Shown one piece after another: positions 61,444 through 62,582 of a stretch of DNA of 64,000 nt (its first letter is position 1; each line of letters opens with the position of its first letter). Position numbers and translations under genes: made by a program. The notes beneath the pieces are model-generated. The model was not told the DNA's origin. It saw only the letters and a list, made by a program, of their open reading frames with translations, and did not search any database. Origin of the DNA: Escherichia phage A5-4; sequence record OP744025; one strand, written 5' to 3'.

Positions 61444-61577
61444 TATGAAGTCGGGTCGCTCCCGATAAGTCGTCGGACTGATGTTCCCTGACTACGAGTT
61501 CCCTCAACGATAACGACGTAGATCACAGCAGAAACGGCGCACCCTATTTCATTTCTTAATATATTTCAATAAGTTCT

Positions 61578-61607
61578 TGACATAATTCTATTATACTGAT
61601 AATATAG
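61578..61607 (+). promoter_or_regulatory. sigma70-like promoter TTGACA-N17-TAATAT
   Basis: TTGACA at about 61578 with AT-rich -10 upstream of ORF 61633. Confidence 0.5.
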
Positions 61608-61632
61608 TTATATCGACTGAATTGAGGTGTTT

Positions 61633-62007
61633 ATGGCTAAAGCTGAAATCGTTACTCGAAAACGCGGTCGGCCTACTACAGAGGAAAGCATTGCAATCAA
61701 TACTGAGAGAGCAATTCTTCATGCTCGTTCCGAGTTTGCAAGACTTACTCCTCAAGCAATTAAAACTCTGGAAGGTCTACTGACTTCCGGTACAGAGAAA
61801 GTTAAAGAAACTACTGCGAAGTATATTCTTGAGCAAGCTGAAAAGGCAAACAATCTGTACACGATGGAAGATAATGAAGAGGATCTGGCAGGAGGAACTA
61901 CTTCTGCAAATTCAGAAACTCATCAAGGCCCTTCTGACGCATTTAAGGATGCTATCCCATTGACTACTCAGATTCGTGAGTATAAAATGGCAGAAGGTGA
62001 AGATTAA
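61633..62007 (+). CDS. hypothetical protein with AT-hook-like RKRGRPT motif
   Basis: ATG with RBS gaggtg (track starts 6 nt earlier at GTG); KRGRP motif suggests DNA binding. Confidence 0.5.
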   Translation: MAKAEIVTRKRGRPTTEESIAINTERAILHARSEFARLTPQAIKTLEGLLTSGTEKVKETTAKYILEQAEKANNLYTMEDNEEDLAGGTTSANSETHQGPSDAFKDAIPLTTQIREYKMAEGED

Positions 62008-62252
62008 GGCTCGAAAGGGCCTTTATTAAGAAGTTTTCTTTAAGGTAGTTCTTACTTTAGCAGAGTAAATCTTTGGCAAGTGGCGGTAACCACTTTACCG
62101 ATACCTCATAGTTAGTGGTGCGAACACTGGCTACCTTAAAGAGAATTTAACTCGTCGAATAAGGAAGATGCTGATCTCAAAGTGAGGTCACTTACCGCAA
62201 GGGGTGTGCATAGACTCCCGCTTCCGAATAGACTATGTGGCGAGATGTATTT

Positions 62253-62334
62253 GGGGACGTGGCAGAGCGGTCGAATGCGCCTGACTGTAAATTAGGTATC
62301 CCACACGGTGGTTCGAATCCATCCGGCCCCACCA
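62253..62334 (+). tRNA. tRNA-Tyr(GTA): tRNA-Tyr (anticodon GTA), CCA encoded
   Basis: Anticodon arm CCTGA CTGTAAA TTAGG identical in loop to E. coli tRNA-Tyr; T-arm GGTGG TTCGAAT CCATC; acceptor has one A-G mismatch; variable region about 10 nt. Confidence 0.6.
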
Positions 62335-62582
62335 AATTAAGAAGCAGGGTCGCTACCTGCAAGTCGTCGGACTGAGATTCCCTGAATAAGACCCGACTTT
62401 AAGGCGTACAAATGTTCGGTTTAAAGTCCCTTATCTCACAGTCGAAACGGTGCATCCTATTCAGCCGTGATGTGATGTAATCACTGACCTCTTTGAAGGA
62501 TCATGGCATTTTATACAAAAACCTGAATAATTTAGGTTTTAATTCCTGGGGTTCGTAGCCCTATTACTAAGAGGACTTAACT

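Follow-up and report, generated by a model that had tools for sequence, protein, structure and literature searches.

Two rnaD-like elements sharing a pseudoknotted fold in the tRNA array of a Vequintavirinae coliphage

A 64,000-nucleotide (nt) stretch of the genome of Escherichia phage A5-4 (sequence record OP744025; hereafter the window) carries two related elements of ~100-125 nt on its plus strand, directly 3' of the transfer RNA (tRNA) genes for tRNA-Met and tRNA-Tyr. Our analysis indicates that each of them is almost certainly a gene for an rnaD-type small stable RNA, a family founded by the 'species 2/II' RNA of phage T4, lying as a cassette among the tRNA genes of a Vequintavirinae coliphage. 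Copy 1 (61444-61545, leader through 3' tail) and copy 2 (62335-62457) both begin at the base after the CCA end of the preceding tRNA, which confirms the placement given in the original prediction, made from the letters of the window. A direct-repeat search of the window returned a 54-nt repeat (61444-61497 and 62338-62391, 80% identity), and pairwise alignment of the copies reproduced the two conserved blocks described earlier, block A (61448-61491 and 62343-62385) and block B (61531-61552 and 62444-62464), with a spacer between them that differs in length and sequence. The small stable RNAs of the T4 tRNA cluster had been proposed as possible analogues; the kinship proved closer, the elements being sequence homologues of rnaD and not mere analogues.

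The homology was established with a covariance model (R1) built from 23 T4-like sequences, none of them from the window or its relatives. In the window this model matched exactly two sites, copy 2 (62335-62456, 112.3 bits, E 3.5e-28) and copy 1 (61441-61543, 90.6 bits, E 2.2e-22), while the next-best match scored 9.1 bits. Since the model contained neither window nor relative sequences, these scores rule out chance resemblance; a model from T4-like sequences alone recovers both copies, and the conservation in related phages on which the original prediction had staked its claim is present. BLAST of either copy against 50,697 phage records matched 730-813 records per copy, nearly all of them T4-like phages of enterobacteria, and block A of copy 1 matched about 800 T4-like records. 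Copy 2 aligned over 116 nt with the annotated non-coding RNA (ncRNA) rnaD of RB27 (E 5e-13) and further matched rnaD of RB7 and T2L. It was 85-87% identical to Dhakavirus loci (E down to 4e-33), the nearest relatives being Escherichia phage C6 (86%) and Dhakavirus CLB_P2 (87%). The annotated counterparts read 'ncRNA rnaD, species II RNA' in RB27 (L001:1499-1619), rnaD in RB7 and RB10, and 'rnaD: species II RNA, small stable RNA' in T2L. An alignment that included the rnaD and rnaC genes of RB27 and T2L showed both copies to be rnaD-like and not rnaC-like, and no rnaC homologue was found in the window. Rfam searches of the window at the gathering threshold and at E up to 10 returned tRNAs and chance-level matches only, and no family fitted either element.

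Diverged members of the family were recovered by viral-contig pattern scans and further BLAST, all of them inside tRNA arrays. They come from KaAlpha (Karamvirus), KP185 (Jiaodavirus), Q7622 (Kanagawavirus), PM2 (Mosugukvirus; two paralogues), LC53 (Winklervirus), Providencia phage PSTCR6 (Straboviridae), Aeromonas phage AS-yj (Ceceduovirus), BI-EHEC (Phapecoctavirus, Stephanstirmvirinae) and several uncultured T4-like contigs. Two of the three viral-contig scans gave mostly chance matches, yet ~25 true T4-like loci were supplied; scans of metagenomes and genomes with a gapped degenerate pattern were too loose, and among the matches listed there were only chance ones from GC-rich genomes and no true homologue. 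In 23 of the 38 family matches the element begins ≤7 nt from the 3' end of a tRNA, which may be of six identities (Arg, Met, Tyr, Asn, His or Lys), and three members end 0-2 nt ahead of the next tRNA. The remaining matches lie 65-365 nt from the nearest upstream tRNA, usually through an inserted open reading frame (ORF), except for two loci whose available sequence includes no upstream tRNA. These data extend the rnaD family beyond T4-like phages, and the two window copies are unannotated members in a non-T4 lineage.

The fold described here was defined in this analysis, no published model having been found. From 5' to 3', an A-rich leader is followed by hairpins H1 and H2, the first strand of helix P3, a CCC bulge, an exchangeable P4 arm, the P3 return strand, a GAAA purine linker and the sequence CGGYG, which pairs with the H2 loop CGUCG to form an H-type pseudoknot containing a near-invariant U.G pair. 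Both window copies form every helix of this fold in the R1 alignments. In copy 1, the A/G-rich, single-stranded leader UAUGAAG (61444-61450; family consensus AAUAAGAAR) precedes H1 (61451-61465; UCGGG, UCGCU loop, CCCGA), a predicted hairpin in which all five pairs covary. The H2 stem AGU/ACU (61468-61470 and 61477-61479) was assigned by inspection, and the 5' pseudoknot strand CGUCG in its loop (61471-61475) by covariation. P3 (UGUU/AGCA, 61482-61485 and 61527-61530; all four pairs covary) is separated by the conserved CCC bulge (61486-61488) from a P4 arm of type a placed by fold prediction (61489-61525), and the linker GAAA (61531-61534) leads into the 3' pseudoknot strand CGGCG (61535-61539). 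In copy 2, fold prediction and the model alignment place H1 at 62344-62360 (GCAGG, GUCGCUA, CCUGC), followed by H2 (AGU/ACU, 62362-62373) with the 5' pseudoknot strand CGUCG at 62365-62369, P3 (GAUU from 62376, AGUC at 62440-62443), the CCC bulge (62380-62382) and a P4 arm of type d (62383-62438), a Dhakavirus-like long hairpin similar to the arms of L012, L017 and L043. Its 3' block (62440-62452) comprises AGUC, the linker GAAA and the pseudoknot strand CGGUG (62448-62452), in which a G-C pair becomes G.U. Block B is therefore no separate module; both blocks are present, and the second is the 3' strand of P3 together with the 3' strand of the pseudoknot.

Covariation was evaluated in two alignments, a MAFFT alignment of the P4-trimmed core (31 distinct sequences) and a model-fitted alignment of 34 distinct sequences, which leans towards the modelled structure, in which the pseudoknot stood in place of H2. 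The pseudoknot helix was 100% paired in both. One of its positions occurs as G-C (25 sequences), C-G (5) or U-A (1) in the MAFFT core, with all three also found in the model alignment; a second position, in the MAFFT core only, occurs as G-C (28), G-U (2) or C-G (1), and the U.G pair was kept in 30 of the 31 core sequences. P3 was paired in 92.7% (MAFFT core) and 97.1% (model alignment) of cells, with changes on both sides at all four pairs and variants including UGUU/AGCA, AGUU/AGCU, AGCU/AGCU, GAUU/AGUC, UAAU/AUUA, AAUU/AAUU, UGUU/AACA and AGCC/GGUU. None of 500 shuffles of the MAFFT core reached any of the five measures, and shifting the 3' partners by 1-3 columns lowered pairing from 87% to 35-47%. 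In the model alignment, 98.6% of cells were paired, 10 of 16 pairs changed on both sides, and H1 had compensatory changes at all five pairs with 99.3% of cells paired; the MAFFT core, which is independent of the model, agrees for the pseudoknot and P3. The first and third C of the CCC bulge were invariant and the middle C nearly so among the 31 sequences. H2 is the weakest helix: stems AGU/ACU, AAAGU/ACUUU and AGC/GCU were recognized by inspection, the register shifts between types, and in the fixed T4 register 68.8% of cells in the MAFFT core were paired with no compensatory change. The H1 loop is of two types, UCGCU (T4-type, both window copies) and a GACG tetraloop (Karamvirus, Jiaodavirus, Kanagawavirus and Aeromonas members), and two family members have a larger domain in place of H1.

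The comparison of the two copies themselves accords with these results. In the first hairpin, for which the original prediction had noted compensatory changes, two pairs of copy 1 are replaced on both sides in copy 2 (U-A by C-G, C-G by A-U) and a third pair, G.U, is replaced by G-C; in P3, two further pairs are altered on both sides (U-A to G-C and G-C to A-U). The selection on RNA structure that it had proposed is borne out by compensatory changes in H1, in P3 and at one to two positions of the pseudoknot, a helix that the first reading had not seen. These data indicate a covariation-supported pseudoknotted fold for the rnaD family, which is new. Two other pairings were considered and rejected. 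In the minimum-energy fold of copy 1, the H1 loop GGUCGC pairs with the 3' tail GCGCACC in an acceptor-like stem, but the tail varies (ACA, AAU) without compensation, members with a GACG loop cannot form the helix, and it overlaps the covarying pseudoknot strand. An extended H2 (AGUC/GACU) is found in T4 only and is not conserved, and its fourth pair competes with the invariant pseudoknot pair.

Block B had been written as gaaacggYgcaYcctattYca; its first part, GAAACGGYGCA, is kept family-wide, whereas the CCUAUU that follows is common to the window copies only. Both copies end in a tail C(A)YCCUAUUYCA (61540-61551 and 62453-62464), where T4-like rnaD has CACCGAAU or similar instead. Such a common tail might reflect either a processing site that both copies use or past recombination between the cassettes.

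At least six types of P4 arm are mounted on the one common scaffold, ranging from a 16-nt GNRA-capped hairpin to 63 nt. Type a, with an 11-nt conserved loop CCCUCAAYGAU above a covarying stem, occurs in window copy 1, Karamvirus, Jiaodavirus and several uncultured T4-like contigs; the other types are those of T2 and Phapecoctavirus, of T4, of Dhakavirus (window copy 2), of PM2 and Kanagawavirus, and of contig L112, and minimal arms are found in PM2 paralogue a (16-nt hairpin, GUAA loop) and AS-yj (20 nt). The arm of copy 1 has a UGA/UCA base, a CUACG/CGUAG stem, an inner helix GUU/AAC and the conserved 11-nt loop CCCUCAACGAU, and the type a arms in Karamvirus, Jiaodavirus and the uncultured T4-like contigs covary with it, having stems CUAUG/CAUAG and CUGUG/CACAG and the inner helix GGU/ACC. 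Conservation is centred on the junction (the pseudoknot, CCC and the UG/CA base of P4), while the periphery is variable. The same Dhakavirus-type scaffold carries an arm of T4, T2 or Dhakavirus type in different members (L033, L036 and L043), and the type a arm is found with both H1 loop types. Copy 1 likewise joins a T4-type scaffold to a P4 arm typical of Karamvirus and Jiaodavirus. This distribution suggests that arms and scaffolds have recombined and that the element behaves as a cassette with an exchangeable arm.

Two further observations concern the arms and their surroundings. In the uncultured Jiaodavirus-like contig L112 (1203-1339), the P4 arm contains AAGGAG followed by AUG and an open frame of ~30 codons, the sole family member seen with a possible small ORF inside the RNA. 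Further conserved non-coding blocks lie 3' of the rnaD-like element in the tRNA arrays of Karamvirus, Jiaodavirus, PM2, Kanagawavirus and Winklervirus (L050 1290-1420, L051 1290-1645, L052 1320-1485, L357 1590-1740 and L358 1590-1730). They include UGUGCACG...UAUGAGAG as well as GUUGUUCCCACAG-hairpin-UUCUAC, which resembles the P4 arm of T2 type; the window contains none of these blocks.

The source of the window is a Vequintavirinae coliphage. Five Escherichia phages of 137-145 kb (A7_1, A73, W70, UPEC06 and vB_EcoM-LTH01) are 95-99% identical to it over the array region, and the records of A7_1 and LTH01, the two inspected, are classified in Vequintavirinae. ARAGORN and Rfam find an array of tRNA-Met, tRNA-Tyr, tRNA-Gly, tRNA-Gln and tRNA-Pro on the plus strand at 60.9-63.2 kb, in which the CCA ends of tRNA-Met (CAU; 61369-61443; Rfam tRNA 60.3 bits) and tRNA-Tyr (GUA; 62253-62334) directly abut copy 1 and copy 2, respectively. 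Copy 1 is common to the five closest relatives and is 100% identical in UPEC06, whereas BLAST found no match of ≥95% identity to copy 2 in any of the 50,697 phage records. The corresponding position behind tRNA-Tyr is occupied in A7_1 and LTH01 by a tRNA-like cassette of ~75 nt that has the same flanking CCAAAUU junction (2919-3006 of L476 in A7_1 and about 3005-3095 of L003 in LTH01, equivalent to window 62335-62468). This cassette has the acceptor UUCCGU/ACGGAA, the T arm CUGGUUCGAAUCCAG and an ACCA end, and is uncalled by ARAGORN. To judge from these alignments, the rnaD-like copy 2 exactly replaces the tRNA-like cassette, which would represent cassette exchange at tRNA junctions. The H1 stem and P3 helix of copy 2 are unique. 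The earlier description of the element as duplicated holds in so far as there are two related copies, but not as a recent duplication in place, because the P4 arms, H1 stems and P3 helices differ and copy 2 is absent from A7_1 and LTH01; the two are diverged cassettes, one of them lineage-specific, that did not arise by local duplication. Because ordinary rV5-like Vequintavirus genomes match the window region at the tRNAs only (BLAST), horizontal acquisition from T4-like phages is the simplest history.

The comparison with T4 rnaD itself is close in several respects. T4 rnaD is a discrete stable RNA of ~120 nt released from a tRNA precursor, known for T4 only (PMC2330249, PMC9697503). The window copies, known here from sequence, share with it homologous sequence, the same fold elements, the same strand, a position in the tRNA array directly after a tRNA, and a similar size of about 100-125 nt. 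They differ in that their genome is that of a Vequintavirinae myovirus and not of a T4-like phage, that there are two diverged copies instead of one, that these follow tRNA-Met and tRNA-Tyr whereas T4 rnaD follows tRNA-Arg, and that no rnaC lies downstream. A following rnaC is the T-even arrangement, an accessory and not a defining feature; it is likewise missing from several T4-like members, among them the Karamvirus and PSTCR6 loci. The other RNA of this kind, rnaC (species 1/I), is likewise excised from the T4 tRNA precursor and has no known function (PMC3014915). Its similarity to rnaD is weak and lies near AAGCCG.GU.GC and CGGCG; unlike the window elements, it has a tRNA-like T arm (GGGUUCGAAUCCC).

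We consider it likely that the RNA, having neither a promoter nor a terminator of its own, is made within the tRNA precursor and freed by host tRNA-processing nucleases. No terminator-like site was found 3' of either copy on the plus strand, and the only promoter-like sites are at 60944-60972, ahead of the array, and at 61577-61605, beyond copy 1. In all members with a tRNA immediately upstream, an A-rich spacer of 6-10 nt separates the CCA end of that tRNA from H1. The tRNAs and the species I and II RNAs of T4 come from one primary transcript of ~1.75 kb (PMC2330249), and both RNAC and RNAD are classed among the late RNAs of infection in a report whose described northern probe targets RNAC (PMC9697503). 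In the proposed pathway, an RNase E-type cut in the A-rich leader just past the tRNA CCA end (61444-61450 in copy 1) would produce the 5' end, and the 3' end would result from trimming that stops at the pseudoknot or, if a tRNA comes directly next, from RNase P cleavage. H1 and the pseudoknot would cap both ends of the RNA, which would account for its accumulation as a stable species in T4. The site at 61577-61605 is a strong sigma-70-like match (TTGACA, 17 nt, TAATAT, extended -10 TG) ~30 nt past copy 1 and ahead of a 124-amino-acid (aa) ORF (61633-62004); copy 2 may be transcribed from another promoter than copy 1.

As to function, we tentatively suggest a trans-acting RNA that serves as a structured decoy or scaffold, a possibility that we favour because conservation is centred on the junction, the element is kept when 65-365 nt from a tRNA, P4 types are shuffled, a single-nucleotide polymorphism (SNP) maps to the rnaC-rnaD region in evolved BW-1 lines, and tRNA arrays have anti-defence roles. 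The invariant junction (pseudoknot, CCC bulge and the UG/CA base of P4) would serve as a binding platform for a protein, probably a host factor, and the P4 arm would be a swappable specificity or effector module tuned to the host. The SNP, T>C at position 164264 in the rnaC-rnaD region, was found in all three BW-1 lines evolved on ECOR34, alongside which growth inhibition rose from 0.17 to 0.98 (PMC12685909); phage tRNA arrays have been described as mobile anti-defence loci (PMC13096335). The combined account, comprising rnaD identity, the fold, excision from the precursor and a role in trans, is one that we hold with modest confidence.

Several points weigh against this account. The function of rnaD is stated as unknown in the literature (PMC3014915, PMC9697503), and the BW-1 SNP could act on rnaC or neighbouring genes, its published description not placing it on the fold. 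Copy 1 showed no similarity or long complementarity to E. coli genomes in a search that is blind to pairings shorter than ~15 nt, and perfect complementarity of either copy to the rest of the 64-kb window extended to ≤11 nt, equal to shuffled controls. The mature ends of both window copies, and the RNA species they delimit, are predicted. In addition, deletions of the T4 tRNA region are viable on laboratory hosts, which implies that any function is conditional.

The chief competing explanation, which we regard as doubtful, is a local role in cis as a processing or insulator module, in which the element positions an endonuclease cut, blocks 3' exonucleases or prevents tRNA misfolding, and the stable RNA is a functionless by-product. 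This would fit the constant location of the element within tRNA arrays, its abutment on a tRNA 3' end in 23 of 38 copies whatever the tRNA identity, the conserved A-rich leader, the lack of its own promoter and terminator, and the tRNA-like cassette that fills the same slot in relatives. However, most tRNA-tRNA junctions in the same arrays are 1-10 nt long and have no such element, and the element persists when 65-365 nt away from a tRNA. Moreover, the near-invariant junction nucleotides, the U.G pair and the 11-nt loop of type a surpass the needs of a spacer or an exonuclease block, and the shuffling of P4 types suggests selection on the arm.

A bolder version of the role in trans, which we consider rather improbable, makes rnaD-type RNAs mobile, modular phage RNAs for counter-defence or host tuning. 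Host nucleases would cut a pseudoknot-locked scaffold out of the tRNA arrays, this scaffold would present the exchangeable P4 arm as a 'bait' that titrates a host nuclease or immune sensor, and tRNA junctions would be the places where unrelated phage families trade arms and entire cassettes. If this were true, two different copies would broaden the hosts or defences that this phage handles.

A mimic of a tRNA, with a pseudoknotted acceptor arm like that of plant-virus tRNA-like structures, or an RNA anti-CRISPR-type mimic of a host CRISPR repeat (CRISPR, clustered regularly interspaced short palindromic repeats), that diverts a tRNA-targeting nuclease or Cas proteins is very unlikely. Many members have CACC 3' of the pseudoknot strand, and the type a P4 arm begins with GAGUUCCC and ends with GAUAAC, like both ends of what we take to be the E. 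coli type I-E repeat. Against such mimicry, ARAGORN and the Rfam tRNA model gave no match on either copy, even at E up to 10, and the 3' tail varies (CACC, CAUC, CAAU, CCGAAAG). With the repeat sequences as we assume them, the I-E repeat shares one 8-mer (p = 0.023, uncorrected) and the I-F repeat gives p = 0.5; the CRISPR repeat hairpin is absent from the element, and the GUU and GAAA positions that resemble the repeat ends covary or vary across the family. The anti-defence character of phage tRNA arrays (PMC13096335) is compatible with a mimic as well.

Still less probable is a ribozyme of a new kind, cleaving itself at its own boundary and so freeing either the tRNA or the element. Small ribozymes have a comparable general architecture, in which a pseudoknot and conserved nucleotides at the junction are combined with a variable peripheral hairpin that is dispensable, and the element lies exactly at a processing junction. 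Yet no Rfam ribozyme family, hatchet and twister included, matched at E up to 10, the sequence lacks the hammerhead core CUGANGA, and the annotated mature rnaD holds the whole conserved fold. The order of the pseudoknot strands is also unlike that of HDV (hepatitis delta virus)-like and pistol ribozymes as we understand their architectures, and precursors of the T4 stable RNAs reportedly build up in RNase P and RNase E mutant hosts in classical work, pointing to protein nucleases. Readings of the element as hammerhead, HDV-like or pistol, and an RNase P P4-like reading of AAGUC...ACAG...GAAAC, were accordingly discarded, the strand order or the core not fitting.

That there is no RNA gene at all, and that the element is a DNA-level repeat (a recombination or homing-endonuclease site) or a short protein-coding remnant, is barely credible: homing endonucleases do cut and mobilise tRNA arrays (PMC2330249, PMC13096335) and relatives carry 'hypothetical protein' annotation across the loci, but only a folded RNA would be expected to show compensatory changes in three helices together with a long-range pseudoknot, rnaD has been detected as an RNA in T4 (PMC9697503), and no plus-strand ORF spans either copy, the overlapping minus-strand ORFs being 39-56 aa with TTG or GTG starts.

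For the preferred role in trans, the closest precedent in mode of action is 3'ETS-leuZ of the E. coli glyW-cysT-leuZ operon, reportedly a stable RNA that tRNA-processing nucleases free from a tRNA precursor and that acts as a sponge in trans. The position of the window elements in a tRNA precursor spacer fits this precedent; there is no kinship in sequence or structure, however, and 3'ETS-leuZ is said to work by base-pairing with small RNAs, whereas no such target was found here in the two complementarity searches, which do not resolve short seed pairings. ROOL and GOLLD are large, structured, phage-associated RNAs of several hundred nt beside tRNA genes, with no known function; they are unrelated to the window elements, the region having no Rfam match to them. 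In plant-virus tRNA-like structures, for example that of turnip yellow mosaic virus, a hairpin loop pairs with a 3'-proximal strand and the 3' end leaves the pseudoknot helix. The window elements also have a pseudoknot between a loop and a 3' strand near the 3' end, but lack a CCA end, a T arm and an anticodon arm.

Other features of the array region were recorded as well. The ORFs at 61633-62004 (phrog_3330), 62583-62789 and 60787-60954 gave no functional clue for the elements in a look-up of neighbouring ORFs. An ORF just past the array (63242-63598) gave a match to the Rz-like spanin families (phrog_4297, E 3e-20), which places the lysis genes next to the tRNA array. Within the non-coding stretch 60973-61270, whose entire 298 nt fold better than shuffles (z = -2.8), a 141-nt segment (61105-61245) shares 83% identity with the rIII/30.9 intergenic region of T-even phages, which is unannotated (e.g. 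RB51 130601-130742), and is a second non-coding element common to this tRNA array and T4-like phages. Two elements (61258-61361 and 62031-62148) have an 18-bp stem beginning with AAGAGAAUUUA or ending in its complement. The stem of the former (z = -5.5) surrounds a weak tRNA-like match called by ARAGORN/Rfam on the plus strand (61271-61349). The latter encloses ~80 nt (z = -4.3) and is 80-92% identical to loci annotated as tRNA-Ser in Phapecoctavirus, rV5-like and T5-like phages, and ARAGORN and Rfam called no tRNA in it. One possibility is that both are tRNA-like genes whose acceptor stems are greatly lengthened; these stems could be sites for RNase III-type processing.

The history of rnaC and rnaD goes back to the 1970s, and neither has yet been given a function (PMC3014915, PMC9697503). 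The relatives of rnaD reach past the T-even genera to other Straboviridae (e.g. Aeromonas Ceceduovirus, Emmerichvirinae) and, outside Straboviridae, to Vequintavirinae and Phapecoctavirus. There is an annotation gap, since both loci are unannotated or under 'hypothetical protein' calls in the five closest relatives of the window and Rfam has no family for them. The exchange of arms and of whole cassettes, which the alignments suggest, is also new for this family. The family fold offers testable handles: backed by covariation, it gives mutational targets in the pseudoknot, the U.G pair and the CCC bulge, and copy 2 after tRNA-Tyr in this phage versus the tRNA-like cassette in the near-identical A7_1 forms a natural comparison.

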